A stretch of DNA of 53,729 bases from the NCBI GenBank assembly GCA_020536535.1, contig JAHLWZ010000290.1, positions 3,171 through 56,899 of the forward strand, given 5' to 3'. The position numbers and the translations under genes are program-made. Below, one piece after another: positions 2,059-51,874 of the stretch (position 1 is the first letter of the stretch; each line of letters opens with the position of its first letter). Origin of the DNA: Pelomyxa schiedti. Taxonomy: Eukaryota; Protista; Evosea. The notes below the pieces were generated by a model, which had not been told where the DNA came from, made no database searches, and was given only the letters and a program-made list of their open reading frames with translations.

Positions 2059-2231
2059 GCATCGTTTACAGGACGAACACAGGGAATTTCCTCAGGAAAA
2101 GTTGGTTTTTACATGTGCAGGCGCTGTTGTTTTCTGAGCCCAAAAAAAAAAAGCCCTTTCCAAAAACCAGTACTTTGTTGTCTTCAAGATTAAATTGCAT
2201 GTCCCCCAACTATTGAGGCCACGGTAAGGGG

Positions 2232-2890
2232 GCCAGCCTTGCACTCCAGTAGCATTCCGTTGAACGTGAGTTGGTGATTGGAATTTGCATGAATGTTCTA
2301 TTGTCATTTTCAAGAAAGGAGCAACGGTTAAGAAAGAATGAAAGTGAGTGATAGGTTTACCTCGTAAAGTTTCTCCACAAAGTCTATTGTAATTTGGGGT
2401 TCTGGATCGGCCATAACACAATTCTTGAGTACCACTCTATCACCAACAGTGCAACCAGCAGGGGGGTCAATAAGCTGAACGACCCTGGCGTGATCATGCA
2501 GCTCCATTCCGGTAAGCTTTCCGCTTGATTTTTGCCCTTGAAGTGTTATTTCCTTGATGTTGCATGTAACAACAACAAATCGATTCTGAAAGGGATTGTG
2601 AAAAGAGAATAGGCGGAGGGATGGGAATACCCTTAGGTGATCGATATTTGGTATATGTTCCACAAGTGCACTTACAATTTGTCGTCTTGAGGTTCCTAAA
2701 TCCACATCTTCCATGTATAATCTTCTTGATGTGAGCTTGGTAATAGAGACAGCGATGATACTTACTTGGCAGAATTTGGTACACGTTTGATGGACAGTAT
2801 TTTTCCGATACGAAGCTCAAGTTTACTGAAATCAAGGGCAGATACTTCACTGCAATCAATACAACATGAAAGTACTGTTTTGTCACATAC
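2232..2890 (-). CDS. tRNA-binding (EMAP-II/Myf/Arc1p-type OB-fold) domain protein, multi-exon. The main exon is about 2362-2728.
   Basis: The minus-strand translation ...EVSALDFSKLELRIGKILSIKRVPNSAK | LYMEDVDLGTSRRQIVSALVEHIPNIDHL...RFVVVTCNIKEITLQG...ARVVQLIDPPAGCTVGDRVVL matches the AIMP1/p43 and aaRS C-terminal tRNA-binding domain pattern (LDxRVGxI...DVGE..RxIVSGL..H.....NRxVVxxCNLK...G..S.GMxLCA...P..G..VGDRVxF). A GTAAGT donor follows SAK and a GTAAAC donor follows LYE. Confidence 0.55.
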
Positions 2891-3179
2891 GGTATTGGTC
2901 CATCTTATTTAACTTCAGCCAGTATAAGTTTCCAACTGAATCACCAGCCACGAGAGGGATATTGGAGCCTCCATATTGGTCAAAAGGTTTGCTGCACAAC
3001 ACTTCCATCGAGAGAATGGAGGTAGGAAGATAGAAACAGTGCACTTCGTGACCACTGAAAACATCCTAGTTGGTGAATTAGAGACTCAGCATCACCTATC
3101 TAGTTTGGAACAAACCCAAATCCTGATCGTCTTGTCACTTGAAGATGAAATGAGGAATGTTGAATTCTGACCTAAGATA

Positions 3180-6100
3180 AGTTATCATTTTGATTTAGAG
3201 ACAGGAAGTCGTTACTGAAAAAAGCTAAGGCAGTAACTTCGTGAGTGTGTCTACGTATAATTCGCAACAGAGCTTTTTTGATTACATCCCATATACATAT
3301 GGCCTGATCTTCACCACCACTTGCAAGAATCCTTCCTGAGTCCAAAGTTAAAGGTGGACTGGAGTTTTGATAATGGACAGACCATCTGGTGAGAATTTAC
3401 AAGCAAGTAGCCCATCTTTGTGTGCTGTTAAATTAGCCTGGTTCTCACCAGAACGAGTGTTCCAAATCTTAAAGAAATTTAGAATTATCATGGACTGAAA
3501 ATAGTACCTTCACTGATGCGTCTTTGGATCCAGTAGCCACCAATTTACTTTTGGGAGAAAAGTCGATGGTGCTTATCCAGCCAGTATGCCCGGATAGTGA
3601 TCCGACTTCTTCTCCTGCACGAACCAGATTAGTATGTTCAGGCATTGTTATTGGGGTACACCAAACCATTTTCCAATGACCAAACTTTTGCTGTACGATC
3701 AACACTTCCTGTGACAGCATATCTATGATGGGTGTGCGTAAGGGAATTAATCCAAAAGAAAAGAAACCTTCCGTCGTGGCTTATCGCACAGGCAAATATA
3801 GGTAGTGTGTGTCCCTCAAGTGACATGGCTTCCTCTTTTGACTGTTTAAACCAATCAATGGAAAGGTATGGTCTGAAGGGTTATTACCTTAACTTCCCAG
3901 ACTTTTGAAGTGTTATCACTTGAAGAAGTTAACAACATTGAGCCATTGGGTGACAGAGCAACGGCGTTTATCTTTAAAAGTTATAACCAAACTACATGTA
4001 AATTGTTAGATACCCTCTTAGGATGTGAGAAAGTAGCCAGTTCACGGCCTTGCTCATCAAAAATTTTTGCTTGCCTATCCCAGGAACCTGATGCCACCAG
4101 ATGTGCCGATGGAGAGTATGATATTCCTTTCACCATTGCTGTGTGCTCTGATGTAGAGCCCTCTGACCCACCAGATAATGTATCAGCTAGAGAATAGAGT
4201 CTATTAGACTTGTCAGTACAGAGGAAATAGCAAGTGGCCAGGTGGTACCTTATAGACATATCTGCAGAACCGGTGACAAATAAGTCACCTTTCGGTGAAA
4301 ATGCTACCGTGTTGATAAAATGGGAGTGCCCTTCCAGAGTTGCCACTTCTTCACCTGTGTTGGTGTTCCAGATCTTCGCTATCTTATCAAATGAGCCGGT
4401 GAGCAAGTAGTTTTGATCACTGGAAATATCACAGCAACTCACACTTTTTATTGGTCAGCAAAATAGAGGGAGCAGTACAGGAAAACCTTTGTGTGTGTCC
4501 TGTCATAGTTTGTGCTGGAGCAGACCTGGCAATATCCCATTTTATTATTGATCTGTCAGTGGATACAGAGAACAGATATTTACTTCCAAAGAAAGCCAAG
4601 TCCTGTTAAAAATTTTAGTGCATGGTATACGTGGTTGTTAGTTTACTTTGGCGTATTTATTGTGTCCCTTTAAATCGACAGCAGGCTTAGAAGAATTTGA
4701 TGTCCAAGTGCCATTGTTAACTGTACAGTGGAGCAGTCGGACATTTTTATCATTAGATGTGGTTGCTAACATGCTGTACAATAGATTAGAAGGATCTTTC
4801 TATAATGGAACAAGTACCTTCCAGATTCGTGGAATTTTATGGAAGTTACTGACGAGGTATGGGGTTTCATAGTGATCAAAGGAGAAAGGGACTTGGCAGG
4901 AGGAAGGGGAGAACTAAATACAGCGATACTTCCATCTTCATAACCAACACCCATAACCCAAGTTCCTGATGCACAAAATGCAGTACAACACGTGGCTTCT
5001 TGGATCTCCGGACTGTGCGGCAGTTAAATTCACGGACAGGACAAGTATGATTAGTACCAGGTGAGTGTTCCAATAACTGAGGATGTTGATATTTGCCAGA
5101 TCAGAGCGGAGCCATATTTATAAGCAACAAGTAGATACTTTGATGACATAAAGCAGCATTGGTTTGCACTTCCAGCTTGTATACCAAATGCCCCAGGATC
5201 AAGATTACCAAGTTCGGTGCATGTACTAGTTTTCCATATCTTTTTATAATTGTAACTTTTTTGGTGAAAAAAGAAGAAAGACCTTGGTAATGCCATTTGT
5301 CTTATAGGTGGAAGCTATAAGTAGTCCATCTGGGTCAAACTGGCAATTTAAAACCTATTTGAAGAAGTTGCAAGTCTACTCCACACAAAGAAGTTTACCT
5401 CACTGGGACCAGCCATAACTCCTCGGTGCTTACTATGTCCTATCAAACGTTTGTTTTCCCAAACAAAGTAGGGAGAATGTTGTAAGGTCAGTAATGAATT
5501 GCCGGCTGCAGAAACAATGGAGTTATCAGCACATGCTGCTGCTTGTTGTATCACAGTGGCTGGGTGATCTGTAAGAGCCGTGATATTGAGCATAACAAAT
5601 TTCCTGTAGCCTGTAAAAATACACAGGTACTCAAATGAGATGGTACTTGAAAGCTTGAAGTTTTTCGGTCAAGAATTCATTTGGAATCATTGTAAAATCT
5701 TCCACCAAACTCGCGGCCATCCCAAGAGAACATTTAGCGGAAACAAATTGAAGGTCACCCAGAACCATTTCAAGTTCAGACCATGACTCTGAACAAATGT
5801 TTAGGCTATCTAGGATGAAATGGGGAAAAAAAAAATACTTACGTGCTTGAATCAGATGATATGGTAACTCTGAAAAAGCATGCGGGTTGATAGCATTCCA
5901 TTTACCATCGGACTGAGCTTGGGTCTTGAAAAATTGAGCAAGCTGCCCATGTGTCCTGATGGCGGAATTACCTCCGAGGTATCTTGTTTGAACTGTCCCA
6001 TATTAGCTACTGGAGTAGTGTTATAAAAGAATTACCCGCTTTAGCAAGCTGCTGGTGAAAGAAATCAACTCGACCCTCATTGTTATTGCCCACTGGCCGA

Positions 6101-8530: not shown

Positions 8531-11500
8531 TTACTCGTGGGTTAGCAACAACTCTCTAGATACTTGGGCCATTTGAAGTGGGGTACAAGCTCCACTCTTC
8601 TTTACCACAGAGTTGACATCGGCACCATATCTAACTAAAATCTTTGCCACATCCACATAACTAGAAGTTGTTAGAATTTCCCAAAAAGAGACAAGTGTAC
8701 CCCTTTGATGAAGCCAAATGTAGGGGTGCCATCTTCTTTTTGTTAAGCATATCCACAGTGGCTCCCTGCTGAATCAGTACTTCAGCAACATCAGCCATTC
8801 CAGACTGAGCTGAAATTGATGAGGAAATTAAGGAAAAGTGCAAACCCACCTGCTATGTGCAGTGCAGTATTCCCAAAATCATTCTTGGAATCAATTATTT
8901 TCTTCGCCCCAGCAACTTTGGCTAGGACTTTAACAACTTCTTGGTTATCTGAAGGAGTGTGAAACAAGGTATTTCTCCCAATGTGTGACCTTTTTCATGG
9001 ACTGCAACATGAAGAGGGTTCTGCCCACCAGAATTTGAGATCGTAACATCGGCGCCATGATCCAAAAGTAACCGAACCTAAAAACTTGAGATAGAGGAGA
9101 ACATGGAAAAGCTACCATCTCACAGTCACAGTTAGCAGAGGCAACGTGAAGAGGTGTAGAACGTGTGACACTCTTTTCCGCGTTGGTAAAATACAAGAAG
9201 GCATTATTGTACCGGTAAATTTGGGTTGGCACCAGCTTTTAGAAGGAGCTTAACCTGATTCATATTTTTATTTTCTGCTGCAACATGGAGTGCACTATGA
9301 CATATTAAAAAGAAAAGAAAAGAATATTATGACTGAACGTGGACTCAGAGCCAAAATCCAGTATTTGCTTTGAAAAACTTGCGTTTAGAAGAGATTCCAT
9401 CAGTTCATCATTACGGGTTTGGGCCGCTGAAGAGGCATAAAACCAAATCCTTTCATTTTCACATCTTAAAAGCTAACCTATGTGTAAAACCGTATTGGAA
9501 CCACGGCTGAACATATTAGCCAATACTGCAACATCTGCAAGTAGTTAGTATTTCCCTTGCTTGGGATTAGACGGACCAAGTGATAAAAAGGACTGCACAG
9601 ATTCTAGTTTGCCCGAGGTGCATGCTTGGGAAAATGCTCGTGCCAGATTTGGGTCGGGTGTTTTTGATATGCTTGCCTATTGGATGTTAGTTGGGACGTC
9701 TTATTCTTTTTTAACATACTGTAAATAGATTAATAGTATCTCTGTTGCCACTTCGGGCAGCTACTTCAACAGCCTTAATGAAGGTGAATGTCACAAGGAC
9801 TTTGGATAACAACATACAGTAGCGCCATTCTCGTTTGCGAAAGGATTAGCCCCTGAATCTAGTAATAGCTTGGCAACACTTGCATGACCGCCTGCACAAG
9901 CTAGTCCAAGGGCACTAGATCTATTTTAGATGTTTGAAATAATGCACCAGGCAAGTCGTAGACCTCTGTGGGCCAGAGGCATTTGAATTTGTTGCCACCA
10001 TTGTGGCTCCATAAGATAATAACAGTTTCGTAAGTGGAGCATTTCTTAAGGGTGTTACTAACTGGATCACAAAGTAATAAGTTCTACCCCTTGATTGCTG
10101 CAACATGCAAAGGTGTTTGGCCATTTCTGCGTGTATTTATGGCATTTGGATTGCCTCCTAAACCTAGTATTAGTACGGCAACTTGTTCACTTCCACGTAA
10201 TGCTGCAATATGCAGAGGGGTCTATGGAGATATTAGTTATTACTCATGAACTCTGAGGGAAGAACCTGTTGATGAAAGTTGTAGACAGAGCAATCTAATT
10301 TGCCTTCTTTTATCAGCCAGGAAGCAATTTCTGGACGATCAAACCAGGCAGCTACATGCAGTGGCGTCCACTTTCCCGACCAAGGGAAAGTTTTGCTTGG
10401 AGCTGCAGTCAGGGTGGCAAACTGTGCTACTGAGGTGGCTCCAACTATGCGCTGGAGGTCACTAAGCTTTCCTATGATGACGTCAACAGGGCATCCACAG
10501 TTACAAGACACTACCTTTCTCAATGGAGGAAAAGAATCTCGATACAACAGCTGGTGCCAAGCTTGAAGATGACTTGAATTCAGTTAAATCGGTTGGTGGT
10601 GGTGTCACCGGGCGTGATGATGTGGGTGTTGTTACAACTGGAGTCGAATCTGGCTGCACTGTTGGCGTGGATGGAGGTGTTACTGGTCTCACAGGTAAGT
10701 CCACTTGCTGCTGTTGAGGTGGTAGTGGTGGCGTTGTTACAGGTGGGGGTGTGCTTGGCTTTGATGGAGGGGTGATTTGAGTAGTAGTAGTACATGAAAC
10801 CGTTGGTGCTGGAAGCACCTTAACGGATGGGGAAGGTGCAGAAGCGGTAGTAGTTTGTTGTTGCTGCAAAACTGGCTGCGAAGCTGGAATGGGGGGTAAT
10901 GGCACAGGTGTTTTATTTGATTTGGAGGCCAACATAGACCAAGAACAAGATGGCTTTGGAACCACAGGCTCAACAGGAGGCAATGAACTTGGCAGGGGTG
11001 TTGGTTCCACAACCACAATGGCAACAGAAACAGAAGCAGAAGTAGAAGAAGTGGTAATTGTGGAGGATACAACATCAGAACCGATCGTCCCAGATTCTGC
11101 AGCACTGATCAGTGTTTTGCGTTTCCCATAACGCGATGCCGACCCCAAGCTGGGTGTCCCTGTTTTTTTTGCCGAGGACACTGTAGTTGTCAGTGTAATT
11201 CCCTCGTCACGAGACGGTAATGATAGCGGGAGAGCATTTTCCTTGGGCGTTTGCGTGGGACACGGGTGTCCCACGTCTTTGGGCTCAGAAGCGCACACAT
11301 TGGGCTGCGAAATTTGTTGCCGAGGATGTTGGCGTCGAGGAAATTGATGTGGGGGCTGAGGGATTGTGGGGTCGAACAAAACTTTGCTTGGCGACACCGC
11401 TCTGGGTCGTCGTGGTACTTTTCGGGCTGCATTCGTCCCGACACTTTTTGAGGGTGCAGGAGCTGATGAGGGGGCAGGCCGATTGCCTAAGGAGGCGGAC

Positions 11501-11541
11501 AGGAAGGGGTTACTTTGTGTGAGGGTGCTGAAGAACTGCAT
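8531..11541 (-). CDS. Ankyrin-repeat protein with a long Ser/Thr/Pro-rich low-complexity N-terminal region; multi-exon.
   Basis: The S/T/P-rich ORF at 10501..11601 has its first ATG (MQFFSTL..) at 11541 and ends at the donor GAGAAAG|GTAGTG. Downstream, several ANK repeats are encoded at 10547-8531 (TPLHVAAWFDRPEIASWLIKEGKLD; TPLHVASANCDCEMV; MAPLHLASSKG|YVDVAKILVRYGADVNSVVKKSGACTPLQMA...stop). Confidence 0.65.
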
Positions 11542-12640: not shown

Positions 12641-14152
12641 ATGTTTGTAGTAGGGACGTGGTCGTGTGTGGTTTGGTGCCTCACATTGGGATCTGCTTTT
12701 GTGTTAAGTGTACGTGCCTCTTGTTGGTGGGGTTTTTTTTCTCCCTTTTCCTGAGGTTGTTTCATTAACAGCCCCCTTTTTTTTTTTTGACATAACACAG
12801 TTGTACATGTGGCCTGGAGCTTTGCATGCGGACAGGGATGCTCCACAGGAAATTAAAAAACGGCTCATCAGTGTATCAATAGTATCTGTGGCTTCCTTGT
12901 GTGGCTTCTACTTGTTTTGGATTTACCCAGCTTCTGGAAAAATGGTGCCTCTATTGTCTTTTGTTTTCCTTTTTTTTTGTTGGTTTTACTCCTTTTTATG
13001 AACCGTTCTCGTTTCTAAGCTCCCATTGCGTTCTTTTAGTATGTCTTTCAATAAACCATTTGTCACAGTCTACAGGCTTTTGGCAGTTTATAGGCCTGTG
13101 GCCAAATTCACCTTGGCTTGGTATTATTGTCCCAACAGCCCTTACCGTGTTCCTATTCTTTGGCCCCCTGGTGCTCTCACTTATGTCTCCCGACATTTGT
13201 GGAGTACCGTATAGGTGTAAGCTGGGACAAAGGTTTCAAGATAAGTTGCGGGGATGGCTATATGCACTCCGTTTGCAACTGGAGTATGAAGCCACCAATA
13301 TTATATCTTGGCGTACTTTTGTTATGGTTTATACCATTTTCATTCCCATTACATGTAACGCACTTCTTCCAAGGGACCCCTCACGGAAGAAATTGTTTTC
13401 CGTGGCTGTATGATTCCCATTTTGTGTGCTTCAGGCCTTTCTATTCAGGCTGCGTGCTTCATGTCACCACTGGTTTTTGGACTTGGTGCGTTCAGCCTTA
13501 CACCAGCATTAGTCTATAAAACTCTTCACAAATCCTAAAACCCTTTTTATAGCTCATGTGCACCATGGAATACAAAGGGTTGTAACAAAAAAGGCACCAA
13601 TTCTGGAGGTTATTCTGGGTACAAGTATGCAAAAAGAACTTTTCCTCAGATCGGTAACTGTACTTTTTAGTTGTTCAGTTGACTTACACCACTATTTTTG
13701 GTGCATACACGTCATTTATTCTTATTCGCACAGGTACCCTCTACTACCCTCAACCACTCATGTAACAGGATACAGGGAATCTCTATGCCTGTATATTGGC
13801 GCACTCATTTTGTAACGTTATGGGTCTTCCACCATTTCAAGAAGCAATTGAACATAAATACCGATTTTGTGTGTTATCTTGTTCCCTACTAAACTCTGGA
13901 GTAACACTTTCCAGTGATTTGTACATCTTTTGTTATTGGGCTTGTTGGATTCTTCTTGCTGCTATTCCCACTGACCAACCCACTGTGGTACAGCTCCGTC
14001 TTTGTAGAATTGTTGGAAGGAAGACCAATATAAACAAACAAAAAAAAAAGAGAAGTTCACTCAAGTTGTTTGTTGTTTGTATTATTATTGCCACACACAC
14101 AAAACAAATACTCCCATCCCAAACTGCCTTCCCCTCCCTCTCCCTCCCATAA
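12641..14152 (+). CDS. RCE1: CAAX prenyl protease 2 (RCE1, CPBP family), multi-exon; the 3' end is approximate.
   Basis: Exon 1 is 12641..12709 (MFVVGTWSCVVWCLTLGSAFVLS) with a GTACGT donor. Exon 2 starts at 12801 (LYMWPGALHADRDAPQEIKKRLISVSIVS...). Later exons encode ...LGIIVPTALTVFLFFGPLVLSLMS..., ...EEIVFRGCMIPILCASGL.., AHVHHGIQRVVTKKAPILE, LTYTTIFGAYTSFILIRT and GNLYACILAHSFCNVMGLPPFQEAIEH.... The EExxFR, FxxxH and HSxxN catalytic motifs are conserved, and the order and spacing match human RCE1. Confidence 0.85.
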
Positions 14153-14172
14153 GTTCCCCCCAGGCCTCTCAC

Positions 14173-17100
14173 TCAGTCGCTAGCATATCCCCCATCATCG
14201 CTGCTCTCGCCCCCATCACCTCCCCCAGTAAACGGCCCAGTCTCCTCCGTGCCGGGCTCAGCCTCCGGCTCTGGCTCGGGCTCCTCCACCTTGGGTGTCT
14301 TTGGCTTGGTGGTGGGTATGACGAGCCTAGGGGGAGGCGGCGGCGGGGCCGGCTCGTGCTCCCTGGGGGCCAGCGGGGGTGGCGCCCGCAGGGTCCCGGG
14401 GGTGCTCCGCAGCGTGCCCCCGGAGGCCGCGGTGGACACAGCGGCGACGGTGGCGGTCACCGCCGCGGTGTCGTTGATGCTAAGGGCGGTGTTCTGCCCC
14501 TGCAGGTGCACCGGCATGGGCGGGAACGGCAGAATTTCCATGGGCGTAGGGCAGCTGCGCCAGTGGCGGGGCTTCCCGGTGTGCCAGAATCCTGTTCCGT
14601 GCGTGATAGGTTAGAGCTCTTGGGGGTTGAATTTGGGTTTTTAGGGTTTTGGCCACTTACCAACTTCTTGAGGCGAGTTTCGCTGAAGGGCTCGGTGGAT
14701 GGATTCTAGTACCATGGCTAGTCTTTCTTTAGACTTTCCTTGGAGTGCCGCCAGCTCTCTCTGGGCATCTTCACTGTAGTTCATTACGCCTACTGTTTTG
14801 TTGTGGATAAAGGCGCTGCTCAATGCCTGTCATTTTGGTTGGTTGAATTGGATGAACGCAAGAGAAATACAGTGAATCCATTGGTCTTGGTTAAGTTTTT
14901 GTCCATATCAAGGAACTGCAACCGACGATTGTGTGTAAGCATGTTAGCAACAGCAGCAGCACCGGAGTCACCCATCTGAAAAGATTGAGGGGATTGTACG
15001 GAAATATTACCAAGTACATTATTGTTGGATATATCAATGGATGTAAGGGAGACAGTATCATTCCAAGAATCAAAGAAGGGTATCAATACACGTTTGCCTG
15101 GATAATGGTGAGTTTAGGAAAATTCCAATGGAGGGTAAAAACCAAAGCAGGAGCCAAGTTTCAAGGTTGTAATAGTAGGGCATGACTGAAGGAGGCCTGA
15201 AAGGGCCTGGATAATGGGTCCTTGTGGTCCACTCCGGCTGAGTGTGTCACTCAGGTTCAGAGTATGAAGCATGTTAAGTTTACCTACTGTCTAGAAGATT
15301 ATGAGAAAACATAAACTGAAACGTGGTACAACCTGGACCATCTCTATCCAGGTAGCATCTTTTGTTTTAATACCGGTTAAATCTAAAGAAGCTATCTTAG
15401 ATGCGGCTTGCACAAGGTCTTTGTGAATCTGCATCTGTGCAAATGTAAAAATCTAGTTTGGTACCGTTGTGTGCGCACCTTCAGCTCAGTATTCTCGGAG
15501 AAATTGACTGTGCAATTAGACGCTTTGGGATTACGGGAGAGAGCAGTGAATAGCGATTTGGCTCCAGCGTCATACGAGATACCACAGCCAGAAAGGTTCA
15601 AGTTTGTGATAGAAGGAGAAACCTAATGGAGGTCAGTGATTCCACAGTGTAACAGAGGCAGGACAGTGTTACCTCCAAGAAAGCAGAGAGTACAAAAGTT
15701 GAGTTACCATCTACCAATCTATTATTTGAGATATCCTGGAACAATAATAAGTGAAAAATAGGACTCACTAACAACACACAAGTTCTGCAATTTCGGTCAT
15801 GTGCTTTAGTGATTGAAGGACATTGAGCGACAAAGTGCATCCAGAAAGTAACAAATGTCTAACACTGGTGAGTAATTCTGAATTCTTACGAGCCATATCA
15901 AACCTTATTTTGGCATAGACCTTCAGAGCAAAGAACCACCTCTCCAATTCCAGTGACCCAGGAAGTTCAAACTTGTTGTTTGATAAATTAAGAACCTGCA
16001 GAGACAACGACACGGATGGATTTTCAATAAAGGCCGAGAAAATTAACTGTATTGCTCGGGGCTGAAGGGAGTCAGAAAATACGGATGAAGGAGGGAACAA
16101 TGCAACTTGCATGGAACAATTGGATAGGTCCAATTCAATCAATGGATGTCGATAGCTGTGAAATACTTTGGCCAATTCCAGGGCCGCTTTGGGGGAAATG
16201 TTGTTTCCAGACAAATCCAAAATTTGTACTGCATGGAGTGAGTTCTGTCAATTGTTAAATGGTTACAATCAGAAGGGGCTAACTTTTTTAAGTGCCTCTG
16301 CAACTTCAATAATTTGTTGTTCTGAAGCTCCTATGTCAGAAAGTACAACTTTGGTCAACGTGACATTCGTTTGTAGTACATAGGCAACCATAGACATTAC
16401 TGCTGGTTGTGGAGTATCAGTGCAGATCACACTGTAGGTAGTCTGTGAATTACAGAAATAATACTGGAACGGGATAAAAACCTTCTGAAGTGAGAATCAT
16501 ATCGCAGAGAGGCCACAAGGGCTCTCAGTTCCAGAAGAGGTGCTTTGTCAGCATCATCTTCAATTACAGGGATTTGAGTTATATCCAACTCGGTAACATT
16601 GTTATCTATCAGGTCACGCAAATAGAAAACAACTTCACTGTTGTATTGTTTCAGATAAGAAAGAACAACGTATCATAAAGAATACCGATTTGCGAGCACT
16701 CCATAAAAAGAACATTGTCCATAGTAATTATTGATAAACTTGGTTGCAGGATCAGCTTCATAAGGATCCACTGCAACAGCCCTAAGGAAGGATCAGAGAT
16801 TCACAGTAGATAAGTTACCATACCCACTATCTTCCAGTTGGAAGTATGTGGCAGGGAATCCACTTGCAATTATTGCAAAGGACTCCCTGATGCCCTTAAT
16901 CATGGCACCAGCAGTGGAACATGAGACACTGAATTTATTCGACTTGGAGGGCGATTTATAGGAAATTGTCACCTTGTATCAATTAGGTCATAAAAAAAAA
17001 AGGTTACAAATTTGAAACAAACTTGGTCGTTGCTTCGATTAAGGGACTCCAAATCATACAAGTGGAATTCCCTGACCTGAATGTGCCAAGTTTATTTTAA

Positions 17101-20255: not shown

Positions 20256-20987
20256 AATGGAGAGAATCTTGCAAGACTAATAAAAACGCAAAAGATCCAA
20301 TGACACGACTGCCAGCTTCAGTAGCAGACCTAATACAAAGTGAGGAAGCAAGCCTAGCATGTGACAAGTGGTACGCATATTGTCAGATTCGTGAACGTCG
20401 CTTTGCTGCCCTACGTGCATTTGCTTTCCATACATGTACATTCTAAGTGTAAACCTACCAAAGAAGTGAGTGCTTTAAAATAGTATTCATGTCTCCTACA
20501 TCCGGAAGAATTTGGTGACCCCGCCAACATTTTGGGTCTGCAGTTGGTTTTTTTGGTTTTCTGAGCTGACGTTTTGATTCCCAACCTGTAAATCACGATT
20601 AATTGGAAAAAGCGGGAAAAACCAAACAAAGAGTGAAGGTGAAGTGGATAGACGACGCGTGCGTACTAAAGTCGAAGTTTAGGCATGTTTAACGGCATTA
20701 GAGCGACATTTGGCATTGGGATGGGTATGTTGTTTCTATGTCACTTTTTTCCCCTTTTTCCTGTCCCGTTTGGTTTGTGCACATCCATCACTCTCATTCA
20801 TTGTCACTTGGTAACTTGAACAGAAAAACCAAACCCCCAAGTGGCCACAACACGGAGAGAAGGTGCGGAAGAGAGTGGTGATAAAACACAGCATCAGGAA
20901 ACGCAAAGCACAAGTCTATCCTGTGAGAAGCAGCCTGATGGTGTCAATGCTCACCCACCTCCCAGAGTAGATGAGTCGGAGCCGGCT

Positions 20988-21698
20988 ATGCTTGGAGACA
21001 GGAGGGAAGATGAATCAGATAGAGATTGGGAGCTTTGTCCAATGGAAGAGGGTCATGTTGGAATTGAAACGCCTTGTGAAATCGTGGTTGCTGATCAAGG
21101 GAAGCAAATGGAGGAACTTGGAATGGGTGCTGAAATGGGCATGAGTGACAGTGTGCTATTCCTGAGGAGTACAGACGGGAGAGTAGAGGATGATGTGACA
21201 AATGGGGCTCATCCAGTGACTGAGGCTAGGGAGACTGCTGTACCAACTGAGGAGATTGTCAGGGAAGAAGTCAAGGAGATTGAATGCCCGACAAGTAATG
21301 AAGCTGAACAAGGAAATATCAAGAATTGTGCCGGTGGGGAGATCACAGAACCAAGTTGTACAATTTCTGTTGAGACTGTGGCCAACGACAGTTCCCTGCC
21401 CAAAGCCGATCAAGTACCACAGGAACCCCAACAAGTCACAGAGGTGCTCAGAGAGAAGAGAAGTAGACGTAAAAGCTGCATCAACATCGTTTACAAACAA
21501 GTGCGCCGTACTATGCTTTCAAAGGCAAAGAAGGAACCCCTTGTCTTTTTCCTTGTGTGGAGCCTAGTGTTGGTATGTCTGATATTGCTTCCTCCCCCAC
21601 TTACACAGCAAAAAAAATCAACGAATGGGAAAATATATAGGGAGTTGCAATCAGGACGTCGTTCTACGCCGGAGAGTTGTACGCAACCCAAGGCCTGA
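20988..21698 (+). CDS. Acidic low-complexity protein with a C-terminal basic stretch plus a single hydrophobic helix (tail-anchor-like); apparently intronless.
   Basis: Track ORF 20841..21698, first in-frame ATG at 20988. It is rich in E/D/T, and the C-terminus reads KRSRRKSCINIVYKQVRRTMLSKAKKEPLVFFLVWSLVLVCLILLPPPL. An upstream acceptor (aacag|) is possible, so this could be an internal exon. Confidence 0.35.
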   Translation: MLGDRREDESDRDWELCPMEEGHVGIETPCEIVVADQGKQMEELGMGAEMGMSDSVLFLRSTDGRVEDDVTNGAHPVTEARETAVPTEEIVREEVKEIECPTSNEAEQGNIKNCAGGEITEPSCTISVETVANDSSLPKADQVPQEPQQVTEVLREKRSRRKSCINIVYKQVRRTMLSKAKKEPLVFFLVWSLVLVCLILLPPPLTQQKKSTNGKIYRELQSGRRSTPESCTQPKA

Positions 21699-21706
21699 GC
21701 CACCCA

Positions 21707-22339
21707 ATGGCTGCCAAATCAACGATGACCAATGGCAATCCCAGCTACAAACAGCCACAGCCACAGCCACAGTCACAGTCACAGTCACAGTCACAGTCAC
21801 AGTCACAGGCCGAGCCTCCACTCTGCGGAGCCCAATTCCAAGAAAGGCTGGCCCTGCTGCTCGACGCCCTCGGGGGCACGGGCGACCCGCCGCCCGCTGC
21901 TGGCGTGACGGTCGAGCTGATGAGCCGCCCAGAGGCAGGCCACCCCCCCGCGGAGCCCGGGTCATCGCCCAGCACCTACCCCACAGTCGCGGCGGCCTTG
22001 GTCAGCGGGCCCCCTCGCCCCTGTCGCTTCATGGCTCGCGTCATCGCTCAGTACCTGGGGCCCCGCCGCCGGCTTGCTGAGGATCAGGGGCCGCGCCCCG
22101 CAATGCTGCACCTCATCGAGTGCCGCGAGAGTCGCCTGGGCCCGCGTGCTACCGTGGAGGAGAACCAGGAGGCACTGAGGGAGTACATTGTGGGAGGCGG
22201 TGGGGCCGTTTACGTGGAGGGGAGGGAGGAGGCCTGCTGGGAGGAGGTCGTGGAGATGGTTAGGGGGCTTGTACAGGACTGCGACGGCGCCGGCGTTCTT
22301 GTGCTACTCCACCCAACAAGTGACATCATCTTGGCCTGA
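21707..22339 (+). CDS. GC-rich (~68%) intronless ORF of 210 aa containing an in-frame (CAGCCA)3(CAGTCA)6 microsatellite that encodes QP/QS repeats; no recognisable domain.
   Basis: MAAKSTMTNGNPSYKQPQPQPQSQSQSQSQSQSQAEPPLCGAQFQERLALLLDALGG...VLVLLHPTSDIILA stop. Third codon positions are strongly biased to G/C, which indicates the sense frame. The antisense ORFs at 21651..21965 and 21745..21975 are judged to be GC artefacts. Confidence 0.4.
   Translation: MAAKSTMTNGNPSYKQPQPQPQSQSQSQSQSQSQAEPPLCGAQFQERLALLLDALGGTGDPPPAAGVTVELMSRPEAGHPPAEPGSSPSTYPTVAAALVSGPPRPCRFMARVIAQYLGPRRRLAEDQGPRPAMLHLIECRESRLGPRATVEENQEALREYIVGGGGAVYVEGREEACWEEVVEMVRGLVQDCDGAGVLVLLHPTSDIILA
21752..21808. repeat. Hexanucleotide microsatellite (CACAGY)n.
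   Basis: cagccacagccacagccacagtcacagtcacagtcacagtcacagtcacagtcacag, read directly from the sequence. Confidence 0.95.
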
Positions 22340-23077
22340 AAAAGGAATCCAAAAGATAGGTTGCTTTTTTGTTTCCCCTTGCCCTGCAAATAAGTTGGGT
22401 CTATGAGAAAAAGTTGGGTTGTTCTCTGTTGTTTCGAGAAGATCTGGTCAACAATTAAAAAAAATGTTGAATAGTGCAGAAACTACGACACACAGAGCGG
22501 CAGTGGTCAACAGCTATCTACGAGTGATTTACAGTTCGCCAAAGCCCTTTGGTGACCCACAATTTACTGTTGTCCAAGCTGGATTGCGTCACATTCACCG
22601 CCGTAATGCACGTGCATTGCTTTTTGAGGTTTTTCTCTCCGGGTTCTGTGGAATTTCTCAGTCACACCCCTTTTTTCCCTCTTCCGTTTAGAATCCCGTG
22701 CTGAGAGAGAGGTTTGGAGGTGTGGTGTTGGAATGTGGGAAGATAAGTCACGAACCTCTTTTACCTACCGAAAAATTCCGGGATGATGTCACGAAGGACC
22801 ATCCTGTAGGTGGTCTCAAGTTTTGAAATTGAAATGTTAAACCCAAAATATGCAGGTAGTGAAGCTTGCTTTACATTCTGACAAAGAATGTATACATCCC
22901 CTTCTCTTTGTCTTTCTATCTTCCCATTAAACAGACTGGTGGTTATTGTGCACCATTGATGGCTGTTGCCCAATTCATTCTGTTCAACAACTTCCATTTT
23001 GGCACGTGACTACTTTTGGCCAACCTCCTCATAAAAAAAAGAAAACCAGAATGCACAGGGTGGTCAAACAGACTCTT

Positions 23078-25814: not shown

Positions 25815-27918
25815 TCAAGAATATTTCACCCGTAGGATGCACATAGGCCTTTCCTCACGAGGGACCAACATCCAAGCCCTGTCATAAGCCTTGTAGTACT
25901 TGTCTAGGACTGAGTGCTCAATGGCGGGAGTGTGTTTGACAAGCGGGCGATTTAATGTGCATTTTGTTCCGTCACAGCACCTGTAAACATTGCCACACAC
26001 AGTGCAAAAGTTACGTGACATCCAAACAAAAGATACATGTTTCCACTTTTATGTATAAACAAGGTAAAGGCAAGAAAAAAGGATCATAAGGAAGGTACCT
26101 TGGTTTGGTCACAATCTCCTCCAATCTCATTCAAAAAGTGGCTCAAAACTGATCTTGCATTCTTAGACCACGTTACACTGCTGTTCAACAATGCTTGCTA
26201 GTTTTGTGACTCAGTGGGTCGGTGGAACAGATGAGAAAAGCGCACCTTCCAACAGGAACTGGAACGCCCTGCATGGTACCTTTTTTTCGAAAAAGAAGGT
26301 TATTCACCCGATATTGTGGGTGATATGATGGCAAACCAAAATCGGGAAGTCCGTTGAATCCTCCCAAGGGCTTGCACATCAAGAAGCGCCAGCACTCCGG
26401 CAGTTTCGGCTTGATACAGTGCTGCCATTGCTGTGATGGAATCATCGATCCTGATGATCTCGTTACAAAATTGTTCTGAAAATACGGAGTTTTACTCAAT
26501 AGATGCAGAAACCATCTGTCGTGTATCTATGGCCCCACTTGGAGGCACCTTCTCGAATTCCATGACAGGCATGGATGCACGTAGCGCGTCCGTTGAGCCG
26601 ATAATTTCTGAATATTTTGACACTGAGATGGACCCCACAGCTTGATTTGGGAACAACTTCCAGTATCCTGACGTGGTGTGTTAAAAAAGAAAAAAAAACA
26701 AAAATGCAAGAAATTGCAGATACCGTGGATGTGATCGTACTCTGAACTCTGATAGTGCTTCCAGAGGTCACACTCTTTGTTTGGCAGAACTCCACCCAGT
26801 CTCACCATTTCAGCCACCAACTCACTTTGGTCCAAAATAACAGCAAGAATCATTGGAGTGAAAATTCCTTCATAACTACGAAGCTGGAAGCTGCAAGAAG
26901 CATTGGGATTCGCCCCGAGGGTTAAAAACTTCATTGCCAGCTCTCGCTGGTTTCTCAATATTGCCATGAAAAGTGGTGTTTTTTCATTTGCCGTCTCCGA
27001 ATTGAGGAATGCAGAGAAATTTGGATGATTGACGAGAATATCAAGAAGCTCCTTGTTTGTTGCACTCCAGCGCGGGTACTGTGTTGCGTTCACAAAAGCA
27101 CGGCCAAGGCCCTTGTGGAACACCTGACAGAGATACTGCAAAACATCTGGACGAGCTTCCTCACAACCACAGTACACTGCAATTGGCAGTTTGGCGTCAA
27201 GAGCCTCGATGAATTTATTCCCGCCCCACTTTTCATTCACCAGCAGTTGTATGACTTCCAAATTGTTGTTGTGCATGACCATTTCCAGGGGAGAGTCGGG
27301 CTGAGGGGGCGTTTTATTGAATAGCAAGGTAGCCTTAGTTGGAACATCAAAACGAGAAAGTATCATTCCAATGACATCCGGCTGTAGCTTACCAATACAC
27401 AAGTGCATAGCCGTGACCTTTCTGCCATCCACCGAGCACCACAACCCCGGATTTGCACCGAAGGGTTCCAGCAAGAATCTGGCCACTTCCACATGCCCCT
27501 CATACACAGCACAAGCAAATGCAGTCCCTTCATCCCACTGGTTCCAAGTGCACATGGAATCCGCCATCCGGGAGAAAAAATCTCGCCGGCAAGGCCTTTC
27601 GTGCCACGCATCGTGCACTATCTTCAGCTCCTCGAGGTGCCCGAGAACCGCGCATACGAACATGACATTGATTCGCACCAATTTTTTCGCGCCGTGGCCT
27701 GTTGACGTGTCTGGGACTTTGGTCTTGCACTCGAATGCCCCTGGTTCGTGGCCCACGGGTGTCCGAGCAGCCAACTTGGCCAATTTCCCAGGCCGCGCCT
27801 TGGCCGCGGCTGTGAGGAGCTTGTTGCCCTTCACAACCGAAATGAGGCTGGCTCGTTTGGCGGCATAATTTGCAGAGTGTTGTTGATTGTGGGTGTCGGT
27901 TCCCACTGTCTGTCCCAT
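25815..27918 (-). CDS. Ankyrin-repeat protein with an N-terminal MGQTVGT (Gly2 myristoylation consensus) and a C-terminal Cys-rich module; paralog 1 of a tandem pair. Six exons: join(27918..26724,26667..26496,26450..26337,26279..26246,26197..26099,26045..25815), 614 aa.
   Basis: Exon 1 is track ORF 26527..27918 (ANK repeats, for example TPLFMAILRNQRELAMKFLTLGANPNA). The other exons are ...DHIHG|(G)YWKLFPNQAVGSISVSKYSEIIGSTDALRASMPVMEFEKVPPSGAIDTRQMVSASI|(E)IDDSITAMAALYQAETAGVLALLDVQALGRIQRTSRF(W)|YHAGRSSSCWK|QALLNSSVTWSKNARSVLSHFLNEIGGDCDQTK|WKHVSFVWMSRNFCTVCGNVYRCCDGTKCTLNRPLVKHTPAIEHSV...KYS stop. All junctions are GT..AG and all phases close, and paralog 2 has the same exon pattern. Confidence 0.75.
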
Positions 27919-27998: not shown

Positions 27999-30169
27999 TC
28001 ATGACTGATCAGACATAGCATATCTGTCAAAAAACCCAGAAGGTGTCTCAACAACGCCTCCAAACAGTGAAAGAAACTCGGAGATCACTGCGGTCTTTTT
28101 TTCCTGAGGAACTACCAAACTCCAAGCCAGGTCATATGTCTGGTAGTATGTGTGAAGGGCTGGGTACTCAATGGCGGGAGTGTGACTGACACGCGGGCGA
28201 TTTACTGCGCATTTTGTTCCATCACAGCACCGGTAAGCATAGCCACACCCCGTGCAATAGTTCCGCGCCATCCAAACAAAAGATACATGCTTCCACTTGG
28301 GTGTTTTTCGAATGTTAAACACCAGGGAACAGTACTAGAAGGTACCTTGATTTGGTCACAATCTTCAATCTCATTCAAAAAGTGGCTGAAAATAATCCTT
28401 GCATTCTGAGACCACGTCGCACTGCTGTTCAACAATGCTTTCTAAGGTTTTTTTTTTTTGTTTTTGGTTTTTTTTGTGCTTCGCCAAACCGTTGGAAAAC
28501 ATACCTTCCAACATGAATTGGAACGCCCCACATGGTACCTTTTTGAAAAATGATTATGTTTTTGATGTTACAATGAAGGAGCATAAACCAAAATCGGGAA
28601 GTCTGTTGAATCCTCCCAAGGGATTGAACATCAAGAAGCGCAAGTACTCCGGCAATTTCAGCTTGATACAGTGCCGCCATTGCTGTGATGGAATCATCGA
28701 TCCTGGCAGAACAGTTATTAGTGGTTCTCAAAATCTCGGAGTTTTACCCAACAGATGCAGAAACCATCTCTCGTGTGTGTGAAGGCAGTTTCTCGAATTC
28801 CATGACAGGCATGGATGCACGGAGCGCGTCTGTCGAGCCGATAATTTCTGAATATTTTGACACTGAGATGGACCCCACAGCTTGATGTGGGAGCAACTTC
28901 AAGTATTCTGATGGGTTTGTTAAAAAAACATAAAAACGAAAGGAAATTACAGACACCGTGGATGTGATCGTACTCTGAACTCTGATAGTGCCGCCAGAGG
29001 TCAGAATTTTTACTTGGCAGAACTCCACCCAGTCTCGCCATTTCAGCCACCAACTCACTTTGGTCCAAAATAACAGCAAGAATCATTGGAGTGAAAATTC
29101 CCTCATAACTACGAAGCTGGAAGCTGCACGGAGCATTGGGATTTGCCCCGAGGGTTAAAAACTTCATTGCCAGCTCTCGGTGGTTTCTCAATATTGCCAT
29201 GAAAAGCGGGGTTCTTCTGTTTTCAGTCTCCGAATTGAGGGACTCGGTGAAATTTGGGTGATTGACGAGGATATCGAGAAGCTCCTTGTTTGTTGCACTC
29301 CAGCGCGGGTACTGTGTTGCGTTCACAAAAGCGCGGCCAAGGCCCTTGTGGAACACCTGACAGAGATACTGCAAAACGTCTGGACGAGCTTCCTCACAAC
29401 CACAGTACACTGCAATTGGCAGTTTGGCGTCAAGAGCCTCGATGAATTTATTCCCGCCCCACTTTTCATTCACCAGCAGTTGTATGACTTCCAAATTGTT
29501 GATGCACATGGCCATTTTCAGGGGAGAGTTAGCCCCAGCGGACGTTTCACATAGCAATTTAACTCTGGCTGGAATATCGCAAGCAGATAGAATCATGTCA
29601 ATGACATCCGGTTGCAGCCTCCTAATACAGAAATGCAGAGCCGTTAATTTGTTACCTAGCTTGTCACCGAGCACATCGCACTCCAACCGCGGATTTGCGC
29701 GGCACTTTTCCAGCAAGAATCTCGCCACTTCCGCATGCCCCTCATTCACAGCACAAGCAAATGCGGTCCCTTCATACCACTGTCTCCAAGTGCACATGGA
29801 ATCCACCAACAACACAGAAAAAGTAGTTTTGTCCTCCCAACAGACCCTTTCGTGCCAGGCATTGTGCACTATTTTTAGCTCCTCGAGGTGTCCCAGAGCA
29901 GCGCAAACAAACATAAGATTGAGTCGCACCAATTTTTTCGCGCCGTTGCCTTTCGACGTGTCCGGGATATTGTTCTCGATCCGACATGCCTCTATTTCAT
30001 GGCCCACGGGTGTCCGAGCAGCCAACTTGGCCAATTTCTCAGGTTGCGCCTTGGCCGCGGCTGTGAGGAGCTTGTTGCCCTTCACAGCCGAAATGAGGCT
30101 GGCTCGTTTGGCGGCATAATTTGCAGAGTGTTGTTGATTGTGGGTGTCGGTTCCCACTGTCTGTCCCAT
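27999..30169 (-). CDS. Paralog 2 of the N-myristoylation-motif ankyrin / Cys-rich family, a tandem duplicate of 25815-27918; multi-exon. Exon 1 is 30169..28957; the terminal exon ends at 27999.
   Basis: Track ORF 28718..30169 (MGQTVGTDTHNQQHSANYAAKRASLISAVKGNKLLTAAAKAQPEKL...). It is about 85-90% nucleotide identity to paralog 1 across exons, with divergent introns. The terminal exon reads ...WKHVSFVWMARNYCTGCGYAYRCCDGTKCAVNRPRVSHTPAIEYP.... Confidence 0.7.
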
Positions 30170-31134: not shown

Positions 31135-32106
31135 TCGAGAGCGAAAGGTTTTAGAGCCAGAAGCACCTGAACTTTGGGGTGCCTCAGTAGATCTTCTACG
31201 AGGTTGCGGAGCCTTTGCAGCAGTTATGGAGCGGAGTGCTTGCATTACTTCGAACGAAAAATTTTCATCTTGTGGTGACCACACATTAGGCCCAAAGTGC
31301 ATTAAGAAAGGGCATATCAATACCCGTTATAGTTACAAGTGTTTGTGCAAAGAGCATTGCCTCTCTATCCCGTAGAGCCTATTACTGATCAGCGTTCAAA
31401 GCAACTTTTCCACAAGGGAAAAAAATATCAAACTGAGCAACGCTGAAAAAGCGTAACACAACACAGCGAAACAAAGACCAACATCAGTTAGATCTCTATG
31501 CTCCAGTCCTCGCAGTGGCTTTTGAGCCACCATCGCCTGGCCTGTCGTTACTCGCCCTTGCGGCGACGCGGATAGATTACACCCCATCTGGCACCAACAG
31601 AGTAGTAACAATAAATTACTCGTTGTGTGGTTTTTTTTCTTTTTCGGCCGAACTTACGGTAATTTTTACAGCATTGCCCTGCGTGGCCACCAAAGAAAAA
31701 AAAATCACACAAAACAGATCTCAAAAAAAAACAGGGCGATCGACATTGCCTGTGCTTCGTTAAGTACATACAACCAACTGGCTGTGATCAGGGTGGGCGG
31801 CTGAGTGTGCTTGTTGCTTGTGTGATACAGTCCTTGTTCACTGCATCTCCCAATAGAAGGTGTATGGGTGACTTTTCTGTGTGGAGTATGGCCAGGTGAC
31901 CGGTGGACCAACTGCGTTGCATCGTTACGGCACTGATGTAATGCGTGCCCACTTGCTCCAGGAAAGAAAGGTACGAATCCATTTCTTTTTTGGGTGAGTT
32001 GTGAACTTGTTTAGTATTTGATAAATACCTTGTTTAGTAGCGCAGCTTTTTGGAAGGTCAACGGAGAGTGCGGAAAGTAAAGGAGAGGATGCAGGATTCC
32101 GCTGCT

Positions 32107-33767
32107 TTACAGTGTAGTATCCCTAATACCGTCACTGACAAAGAATTTTCCGTCAGAACCTACCTCTCGGCTTTGCTGAAGGGAAATCCTTTGGTTCTCC
32201 TCTGAGGAGACCCGGAACGGATAGTACAGAGTGAATCCCAGAGAATTGTTATCCACAGGATCAGTGGGAGCAGGAGACAGGGAAGTTTTGTATTGCATTG
32301 CCCGATACGGCGTATTTGTGGATGTTATCCATTGCGACACAATGAAATGCAAGTCACTCAACGTGGATAATGAGTGAAGGAAACCGCCATAAAGCTGCGG
32401 GACTTCAGTTCCCGTGAGCATCACTTTCTCGGCGCTCCAAATGCCATCTATTTGAGAAGCTGTTCTCATGACAATTGCATAGCGCGATGGCGAAAAGTAT
32501 GACAACACCCAAGTCTTGTTGAAGAGTCGGAGAGAAAGTTCACCAAGTGGTCCTGTGAAGATTATTAAAAACCTCCAAAACGCATTTCAGTTTCTACCTG
32601 GAAGAATGGGAGTTGCAGGTTGTCCCCATTGCCATCCATTTTCCTCAGTCCAACCCCATGGTATATATGCCGATTGTACGAGAAGTTGCTTTTCTGGCAC
32701 TTTCTGGAGTATCATTCCTTCAGTCCGCACTCGGCCAAACGCACATGATATGATGTAGATATAGCCATCATTTCCATTACACATTGTCCACATTTGATGC
32801 ATGTCACCATTCCCATCATTCCACCACACTGGCGATTGCACTGTCCAGTCCTCCCCGTAGTTGGTACTTGTAGCAAGCCCTGCATAGTTCGTTGCCCAGT
32901 TTGGGTCGGACCAGGAGTGCACACTCATAAATGACAGATAGTTTACATCAGAAACTGTGATTCCATCCCCAGGGATTACAGTAACTTCGTATTGCCCATA
33001 CTTATTGTAGCCATTTTGAGCATTGGGAAGTATTTGCTTTGCCCTACCACTGGATTCTGATCCCGTACCAGCACAATTATCCCAAGTTATGCCCCCATCA
33101 AGTGGATATGTATGCGACCTGCACATCACAGGCGACCTCCACCCTGTACCTCCTGCCTGGTACTCGTCAAATGTATCGCCAAAGAAAAAACCTACCAATA
33201 AAAACATGTAAAGTAAGGCTCAAAAAAATCGCCTCCTACTTACCGAAAGCCCCATTCTGGAACATAAACGGCTCTCCCAGGTCAGTGCCTTCAAATTCGA
33301 ACTGAGTTGTGACTCCTGGGCCAGTGATATCTTTAACCTTAAGGTAGACGTCACCAAATATTGGAAGGGTATTACCGGCAACCTACTGTAAACCTACCTT
33401 CAAAGTTAATTGAGGAGCCACAGGGTCATATTGTAGTTGAGTCTCCAAACTCGCGGTAGGTGTACCAACTGATATCTCATCCGCAACAAGATAAGCCGCG
33501 CTAGCAGGGAAGTGTGGGTGATACCAAGTCCTATTCTATACAGCCATCAAAAAGGGTAACCAGGCACCCTTACTATCCATTATACTTATTGGAGGCAGGG
33601 CGCCTTACGCTGTTGTAATTCAAGCGGACCACTGCCCCACGTCGCACCGGCTCGCCTCGCACGTTCGTCGTAGTGAACAAAAGTTCCGCCCCAGGTACGC
33701 GGGCCAGCTCCGCGTGCGACAACCACGCCACACTGAGGCAGCACACAACCGCCACCAAGCTTCTCAT
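32107..33767 (-). CDS. Secreted protein (signal peptide MRSLVAVVCCLSVAWLSHAE) with a large Trp/Gly/Asn-rich, probably beta-propeller-like domain; at least 5 exons. Weak resemblance to the DUF4185 / glycosyl-hydrolase-like fold; this is my guess.
   Basis: Exons read ...RLNYNS|NRTWYHPHFPASAAYLVADEISVGTPTASLETQLQYDPVAPQLTLK|VAGNTLPIFGDVYLKVKDITGPGVTTQFEFEGTDLGEPFMFQNGAFG|...GDTFDEYQAGGTGWRSPVMCRSHTYPLDGGITWDNCAGTGS...WTMCNGNDGYIYIISCAFGRVRTEGMILQKVPEKQLLVQSAYIPWGW...|GPLGELSLRLFNKTWVLSYFSPSRYAIVMRTASQIDGIWSAEKVMLTGTEVPQLYGGFLHSLS.... Donors GTAAGG, GTAGGT and GTAAGT. The first exon is GC-rich. Confidence 0.5.
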
Positions 33768-34288
33768 TGGAATTTTGAATTTTTCTCAAACGCAAACCCC
33801 AAAACGGGTCGAGTTGAAGAGCGATCCATCTTTTCTTGATGCAACCCTCGCCTCACACCTCCAAATGGAAGAGGGTGGTTGTTTTTCTGCTTCGTAAGAG
33901 GACGTTGCAGCACGGGATGTGAGAGCTTGAGCAAAGATGTCTCCTGATTGTTCAGTTGATTGTCGAAAGTGCTGGAAATTAAAAGTCCGAGATGCAGTGT
34001 AGCATGTGCCACGGCGTGATTGATGGGCGAGTGGTGGACGCAATTCAACAGAAATGGCACCCTCAAGTTGTAGAGTTGTAGTTGAGCCCGTTTGTTTTGT
34101 GGCTGTCACGTCACCTGGCCTCCCACTAACCTCCCATAAGTGCTTCATTTGTGATTTTTGTAGGGCGCCTATAGTCTCCCAGTACAGCACGAAGTACGGT
34201 GCGTTGTGCTCGTTTTCTACTCATCCTCTCCTTCCCTGCCTTGTCATTAAGTAACAGTTAGATTAATTAGACACGCGGGGGTTATTAA

Positions 34289-51129: not shown

Positions 51130-51874
51130 GGGTGCTTTCAAGGTGACACTCAGCCCTTTAAGATTCAACACACTGATTTTCTTAAATTAAAGACTCGAGG
51201 GTCGACGACTGAACTAGCATTGACAAAAGAAGATTTCCGGGCTGTGTGAAATGTGGTGTATCCAACAAGCCCAGCTTTTCTCCAGACTTCCACTGCCCAA
51301 CCAGCGGAACCGCGGATTCTTCACTGGTCACTCCCTTGAAGGTTGCTTTTGTTTCGCACATTCCAACTGGCTTACATCACAGTTATAGTTGTCGACAATG
51401 CAGAACCGGCACATCCTGGAATGATCTCGAGTACGCCATCACTCATAAAGTGCAGATTCAATAGGTATGCTTTGCTCTCTTATGAGGTCAAGGCATTGTG
51501 TTGCTTGTGCTAATACATGGATATTTTAAGATATCTTCAGCTTCATAGATTTCAGCCTTTTTTTTTTTTTTTTGAAAGGAGTTGCGCATAGAACGCAAAC
51601 CCCATCTAAACAAAAATTACACTGCTGGGCTCCCTTGCGGGATCCATACTGCAACCTCAGACTAGAGTGCTAAGTCCGAGGCTACAACAGCACACCAGTC
51701 CTTATTGATCAACGGTATGCACAGTCAGGTATGTATGAAGGAACACTTTGTCCTGTTGGGCGGTGAAATACCCCCGGTCCCTCCATCTGGGTTATGGGAA
51801 ACCCTGGAAATTACCCATAAGGGCAAAAAACCCGGGCGGGTGAAATTGCGATCACACTGAGGTGGAAAACCTTC

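Follow-up and report, generated by a model that had tools for sequence, protein, structure and literature searches.

Genes and exons that are taxonomically restricted (orphan) and encode low-complexity, disordered products lack a recognizable homologue. Coding microsatellites and tandem amino-acid repeats, such as polyQ and dipeptide repeats, form near-perfect in-frame arrays with a unit that is a multiple of three nucleotides. Some single-pass membrane proteins carry a low-complexity stalk close to the membrane, and tail-anchored proteins have a single transmembrane segment near the C-terminus and no N-terminal signal peptide. CpG islands are stretches of at least 200–500 bp with a GC content above 55% and a CpG observed/expected ratio above 0.6, located at promoters. 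Features of each of these systems recur at a GC-rich open reading frame (ORF) of 210 codons plus stop, which extends from the ATG at 21707 to the TGA at 22337–22339 on the plus strand of a 53,729-nucleotide stretch of Pelomyxa schiedti DNA (assembly GCA_020536535.1, contig JAHLWZ010000290.1, positions 3,171–56,899), hereafter the window, from whose first nucleotide all coordinates are counted. The window is intron-rich eukaryotic nuclear DNA, as its U1 snRNA genes and homology-supported introns, detailed below, indicate. An earlier note on this DNA had described the ORF as an intronless orphan and had suggested a young de novo gene, a horizontally acquired fragment or a repeat-expansion-prone low-complexity protein. 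Our analysis identifies ORF 21707–22339 as truly protein-coding and as part of a lineage-restricted eukaryotic gene, the transcription and translation of which are predicted, and the leading interpretation, held with about even confidence, is that it constitutes the 3'-terminal exon (21641–22339) of a three-exon gene starting at 20685.

The ORF has a GC content of 66.5%, compared to 44.9% across the whole window, and 200-nt windows show a sharp rise to 0.63–0.75 at this position. The GC richness given in the earlier note (about 68%) is thus borne out, but the description of third positions as almost all G or C is overstated: the GC fractions at the first, second and third codon positions (GC1, GC2 and GC3) are 0.72, 0.53 and 0.75 for the complete ORF and 0.77, 0.53 and 0.79 without the repeat, with GC3 values of up to 0.85–0.90 in 20-codon windows. 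Likewise, the flanking DNA, at 40–45% GC (42–45% for the 2-kb flanks), is ordinary for a window of this composition rather than AT-rich. Considering that GC-rich DNA is poor in stop codons, the length of the ORF provides weak, marginal evidence of coding; the stop-free run of 232 codons in 21641–22400 was matched by 77 of 2000 dinucleotide-preserving shuffles. What distinguishes the ORF from marginal orphan ORFs is its strong codon-position signal. Outside the repeat, three-base GC periodicity gave a chi-square of 34.8 (p = 3e-8), with GC2 lower than both GC1 and GC3 by 0.24, and the observed statistic was attained in none of 5000 shuffles in any frame. Over the ORF span, the reported frame contains the terminal stop only and the other five frames have 3–9 stops each, which together with the periodicity indicates that the segment is coding, on the plus strand and in the frame originally reported. 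The antisense ORFs at 21651–21965 (104 aa) and 21745–21975 (76 aa), which had been named as a possible expressed strand, are by-products of GC richness: the mirror minus-strand frame, where an equal GC periodicity appears in reverse, is interrupted by nine stops, and the other minus frames by five and seven.

The assignment of the ORF to a larger gene emerges from the sequence immediately upstream. The preceding same-strand ORF (20841–21698) has GC1, GC2 and GC3 values of 0.59, 0.44 and 0.42, typical of coding ORFs in the window, and the ATG at 21707 lies 8 nt past its TGA stop (21696–21698). The frame of the GC-rich ORF is open from 21641, directly after a TAG at 21638–21640, which forms the acceptor end of a candidate GT-AG intron of 68 nt (21573–21640, TTG/GTATGT...ATATAG/G, 37% GC; slashes denote splice sites). 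This is the only well-formed GT-AG pair that takes the upstream frame into the ORF frame, and its length modulo 3 equals 2, as the frame change demands. For comparison, we used 19 GT-AG introns with a mean GC fraction of 0.38 (0.37 for the candidate), which are supported by alignment of the xanthine dehydrogenase (XDH) and DUF4185 genes of the window to homologues. The XDH gene (42183–47736, plus strand) contains many tiny introns, and its exons, in three frames, match mammalian XDH structures. Eighteen of the 19 introns are 40–51 nt long and have weak donors (GTTTGG, GTGACA, GTACTT and similar), and the remaining one, the first intron of the XDH gene, has 74 nt and a strong GTATGT donor. With its 68 nt, the candidate falls between the 40–51 nt mode and the XDH first intron, which it resembles in length and donor.

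At its 5' end, the gene would start with a short exon 1 (20685–20724) carrying the start codon (MFNGIRATFGIGM), as suggested by reading of the sequence and by the spliced translation, followed by a putative intron 1 of 99 nt (20725–20823, TGG/GTATGT...GAACAG/A), the phase of which is consistent with that translation. Exon 2 (20824–21572) has a normal composition (GC3 0.42) and codes for an acidic stretch, a basic cluster and the first part of a hydrophobic transmembrane segment, and the stop-codon map and the uninterrupted spliced translation place the proposed 3'-terminal coding exon 3 at 21641–22339. The spliced model, 20685–22339, is a single uninterrupted frame of 495 codons. GC3 along this model is 0.30–0.45 over the first ~220 codons, 0.55–0.65 from the end of exon 2 through the junction and 0.85–0.90 in the core of the GC-rich part; it climbs gradually and does not switch at ATG 21707. 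In the segment between the acceptor and this ATG (21641–21706), GC3 is 0.68 in the ORF frame vs 0.50 in the upstream frame. A sequence scan revealed no AATAAA-like hexamer from 21500 to 22388, the first poly(A)-signal-like hexamer after either stop being AATAAG at 22389–22394 on the plus strand; other genes of the window have AATAA[A/T/G] ~50–95 nt past the stop. Because no such hexamer precedes 22389, the upstream transcript probably runs through the GC-rich ORF whether or not the 68 nt are removed. The description of the ORF as a stand-alone intronless gene becomes doubtful when it lies 8 nt past the stop of a coding ORF, with no poly(A)-like signal in between and with a 68-nt intron that would fuse the two frames.

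The candidate intron was scored with a position weight matrix that we derived from the 19 supported introns, using decoy sites taken from intronless ORFs. The donor at 21573 scored 3.7 bits, a value reached by 9% of decoy GTs, and the strong-donor motif to which it belongs, G/GT[AG][AT]G[TG], has an overall frequency of 4e-4 per nt on each strand. The matrix suggests moderate support for the intron. Several observations weigh against splicing at this position. The acceptor at 21640 scored 0.5 bits, and 33% of decoy AGs are as good; the strong-donor motif is also present inside intronless ORFs; and the length of 68 nt is outside the 40–51 nt mode of most known introns of this DNA. In the unspliced reading, the hydrophobic run crosses the donor (LVFFLVWSLVL-VCLILLPPP) and makes a better transmembrane helix, with a Kyte-Doolittle 19-residue mean of 2.69 compared to 2.03 after splicing, which favors intron retention at least sometimes. 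Moreover, the GC-rich ORF has its own ATG (CCACCCAATGGCT) directly past the upstream stop, as would be expected of a separate cistron, and the analogy with two other GC-rich final exons, described below, is built on putative introns that lack homology backing. Balancing these points, we consider removal of 21573–21640 about as probable as its absence. Two other candidates were rejected, namely programmed −1 frameshifting, as inspection by eye found no slippery heptamer in the 21641–21698 overlap, and a 36-nt intron at 21573–21608, which would leave the upstream frame unchanged, falls below the length range of the supported introns and has a C immediately after it.

If the 68-nt intron is removed, the upstream frame would be joined to the ORF frame, giving a 495-aa single-pass membrane protein. 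Its N-terminal region of ~250 aa would be acidic (pI 4.7) and would be followed by a basic juxtamembrane cluster (KRSRRK...KAKK) and one hydrophobic transmembrane segment; ~40 residues past the membrane segment, the microsatellite would encode a flexible QP/QS linker, and the C-terminal ~175 aa, rich in A, P, G and E and containing five cysteines, would have no recognizable fold. Given the basic cluster before the membrane segment and the positive-inside rule, the N-terminus would reside in the cytosol. If the 68 nt are retained, translation would stop at the TGA at 21696, yielding a tail-anchored isoform of 304 aa and leaving the GC-rich part untranslated. By hydropathy, this isoform has the features of tail-anchored proteins, with a membrane segment at residues 253–271 of 304 (mean 2.69) and a 33-residue tail to the C-terminus. 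Both the spliced and the intron-retaining isoforms may exist. The predicted protein resembles single-pass membrane proteins with a low-complexity stalk in its basic cluster, its hydrophobic segment (Kyte-Doolittle 2.0–2.7) and its QP/QS linker; it differs in that the topology is derived from hydropathy only and no family can be assigned. Function and topology of the 495-aa product are predictions drawn from the sequence. In our best model, the ORF would form the final exon of a membrane-protein gene specific to this lineage, and an isoform that retains the intron would end earlier.

The linker is encoded by a hexanucleotide microsatellite, (CAGCCA)3(CAGTCA)6, at 21751–21808 on the plus strand. 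Tandem Repeats Finder reports a period of 6 with 9.7 copies and 98% matches, making this array the strongest tandem repeat of the window, and the chance expectation for the motif count of the repeat is 0.00. Translation in the ORF frame reads QPQPQPQSQSQSQSQSQS, confirming the in-frame (QP)3(QS)6 repeat that had been reported. The earlier expectation that changes in repeat length would alter the protein directly also holds, as the unit is in frame and a multiple of three; slippage would change the linker length without a frameshift. The repeat is therefore a plausible source of protein-length variation in the linker, where it would serve as a flexible spacer of variable length. As in other coding microsatellites and tandem amino-acid repeats, the array is near-perfect and in frame; it differs from homopolymer coding repeats in giving the dipeptides QP and QS, and is known here from a single sequence.

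Searches with the ORF product returned no match in Pfam, NCBIfam or PHROGs, and none among PDB sequences at E ≤ 10. A word-indexed search of 5.8 billion protein clusters detected no relative, and an exhaustive HMMER search of 1.84 billion representatives detected no homologue beyond one match (E = 4e-4), which we judged spurious, as it is a 1579-aa highly repetitive protein aligning best with ORF residues 74–113, in the low-complexity half rich in A, P, G and S. No relative of the ORF was found in IMG/VR viral contigs, in 185,579 prokaryotic species genomes or in JGI metagenomes, nor by tblastn in phage DNA and plasmid records, and tblastn against the window revealed no paralogue. In exact look-ups in a collection of 15 billion proteins, the ORF and four neighboring ORFs were all absent. 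Since the searched collections seem to contain neither this genome nor close relatives of it, the lack of homologues is weak evidence; even conserved genes of the window match only distantly. The orphan status proposed earlier is supported for the searched collections, in which this lineage is poorly represented, and the taxonomic restriction is thus an apparent one. A single-sequence AlphaFold2 prediction gave a pLDDT of 39.7 for the whole ORF product and 44.7 for its C-terminal 116 residues, values too low for a confident fold, and A, P, G, S and Q make up 46% of all residues. In these respects, the product is similar to those of orphan low-complexity genes and exons; here, the ORF would be attached to a lineage-specific gene that itself has no Pfam family.

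The competing explanation that survives best is that the ORF is an orphan gene of its own, starting at ATG 21707 and expressed either as the second cistron of a dicistronic, operon-like unit or from a promoter inside the 3' coding region of the upstream gene. We regard this as possible, although unlikely. In addition to its own ATG so close to the upstream TGA and the weak acceptor of the candidate intron, the GC-rich island itself (21726–22351) closely fits the span from ATG to stop, and the unspliced upstream frame ends like a textbook tail-anchored protein, complete with basic cluster, 19-residue segment and 33-residue tail. The spacing, however, is unusual, as ~185–240 nt separate the other pairs of same-strand genes in the window, compared to 8 nt here; the upstream gene would have to do without a poly(A)-like signal before 22389, and no pyrimidine tract precedes the AG at 21698–21699 as expected of a trans-splice acceptor. 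Eukaryotes rarely translate a second cistron after an ORF of 300 codons, and GC3 in the ORF frame is already raised upstream of the ATG. A dicistronic unit and a spliced single coding sequence would both be in keeping with the spacer of 8 nt and with the lack of a poly(A)-like signal between the two frames.

Acquisition of the GC-rich segment by horizontal transfer from a GC-rich bacterium, a virus or another donor, as put forward in the earlier note, appears very improbable. Composition is the main argument for it, with 66.5% vs 44.9% GC and a GC3 of 0.75–0.79 vs 0.40–0.54 in host genes, and a DUF4185 gene of clear bacterial type in the window suggests that transfer into this genome has probably happened. 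Yet the searches of prokaryotic, viral, metagenomic, phage and plasmid sequences, PHROGs, NCBIfam and protein clusters provided no donor homologue, the rise in GC3 begins gradually within the upstream exon, and the resident DUF4185 gene has a host-like GC3 of 0.42. Furthermore, the atypical composition is shared with two unrelated final exons of host genes that appear to be spliced. A scan for GC-rich stretches identified, besides the island of the ORF, large islands at 14103–14654 and 49304–49743. The first corresponds to a terminal exon on the minus strand (14591 to 14173), preceded by a putative intron of 69 nt (14660–14592, TTG/GTAAGT...GAACAG/G), and the other to a terminal exon on the plus strand (49263–49758), preceded by a putative intron of 149 nt (49114–49262, ATG/GTGAGG...CCATAG/G); both exons end at a stop codon. 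In each case, the island is joined in frame to an upstream exon of normal GC content, the joining intron being the shortest compatible one with good sites. GC3 reaches ~0.95 and ~1.0, respectively, across tens of codons, and the CpG observed/expected ratio is up to 1.37. Because the GC3 excess is common to these two final exons, it does not mark the ORF as foreign. The three islands have no DNA or protein similarity to each other, and we therefore rejected a common repeat or mobile element as their origin.

Still less probable is the emergence of a young de novo gene or exon from GC-rich non-coding DNA, aided by the scarcity of stop codons, which had also been suggested. The lack of homologues in any search, the low complexity of about half of the sequence and the pLDDT of 40–45 would be expected of such a gene, and equally long ORFs arise in 4–9% of shuffles of the GC-rich stretch. 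The periodicity, attained by no shuffle, is nevertheless unlike that of a chance ORF in GC-rich non-coding DNA, and the order GC3 > GC1 >> GC2 is typical of established coding sequence; the missing homologues are uninformative, given that the genome is absent from the collections and that conserved genes of the window have only distant matches. Least probable of all is a non-coding GC spike, CpG-island-like or associated with recombination, with the ORF as a by-product of stop scarcity: the marginal ORF length, several overlapping ORFs in other frames and a CpG observed/expected ratio of 0.71 inside the ORF, compared to 0.38–0.43 in neighboring coding exons and 0.61 in the window, are consistent with it, but neither the three-base periodicity (0 of 5000 shuffles), nor the end of the island at the stop codon with 40% GC directly downstream, nor the 3–9 stops in each other frame is. 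It would probably be a mistake to annotate the ORF as a stand-alone intronless orphan, a candidate for horizontal transfer or a de novo gene.

By analogy among the three islands, a GC-rich, GC3-extreme final exon would be a recurrent feature of this genome. With 633 bp, a GC fraction of 0.665 and a CpG observed/expected ratio of 0.71, the ORF exceeds the numerical thresholds for CpG islands, but it is coding and located at the 3' end. It shares with CpG islands and with GC3 spikes from GC-biased gene conversion the extent of ~600 bp, the GC content of 66% and the CpG ratio in a CpG-depleted genome of ~45% GC. The difference is that the excess sits at third positions of exons, and the introns and 3' flanks beside the island exons have 37–49% GC. 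Neither promoter CpG islands nor simple GC-biased gene conversion would be expected to spare adjacent introns and untranslated regions, and no standard model, including horizontal transfer, predicts GC3 extremes that are restricted to exons. Our literature search yielded no pointers to the combination of tiny introns with GC3-rich exons. More speculatively, and with low confidence, we suggest that an exon-restricted, 3'-biased process drives final exons to a GC3 of 0.85–1.0, the ORF being one instance of it, or else an orphan cistron 8 nt past a stop. Candidates for such a process are transcript-mediated conversion and, in a genome whose introns are tiny, selection acting on long terminal exons. 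If the pattern extends genome-wide, GC3-extreme exons beside AT-rich introns could help to separate selection, methylation and gene conversion as causes of GC content.

CpG depletion is visible throughout the window. The CpG observed/expected ratio is 0.27–0.9 in most 1-kb bins (0.61 overall), accompanied by a TpG/CpA excess of 1.15–1.4, and this combination is, at the level of sequence, a signature of the type left by cytosine methylation. Inside the GC-rich islands, the depletion is reduced or missing. Stop-free patches of smaller size, with GC3 values of 0.75 or higher, are found at 1051–1185, 11379–11507, 27535–27840, 33609–33770 and 53201–53385, and some of them lie at the 5' ends of genes. 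Local GC3 spikes thus recur every few kilobases, and 3' exons are not their only location. The gene region that ends in the third GC island also contains a 24-nt T homopolymer (48195–48218, 91% matches).

Among the neighboring genes, the DUF4185 gene (~32100–33220, minus strand) contains a 45-nt GT-AG intron and has the host-like GC3 of 0.42 mentioned above. Its best named match is from Rhodococcus, with 39% identity, and the DUF4185 family includes bacterial endo-D-arabinanases (PMC10115798). From its sequence, the gene is a candidate for an ancient acquisition from bacteria by this eukaryote. Of all relatives found for genes of the window, the closest is a homologue of this gene on the ENA metagenome contig ERZ25039473:contig_84338 (~1100–3300, 54% GC), which aligns at 60–79% identity in segments with 346 and 440 nt between them. 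The contig shares with the window only the DUF4185 gene and possibly its downstream neighbor, and may originate from a distantly related eukaryote. The window also encodes WD40, LRR, Sel1, ankyrin and SAM proteins. Two tandem ankyrin-repeat paralogues on the minus strand (26527–27918 and 28718–30169) are intron-poor and 79% identical in amino-acid sequence, and both begin with MGQTVG, which may be an N-myristoylation motif. Two full-length U1 snRNA genes, at 51575–51736 on the minus strand and 51875–52033 on the plus strand, are arranged divergently, ~140 nt apart.

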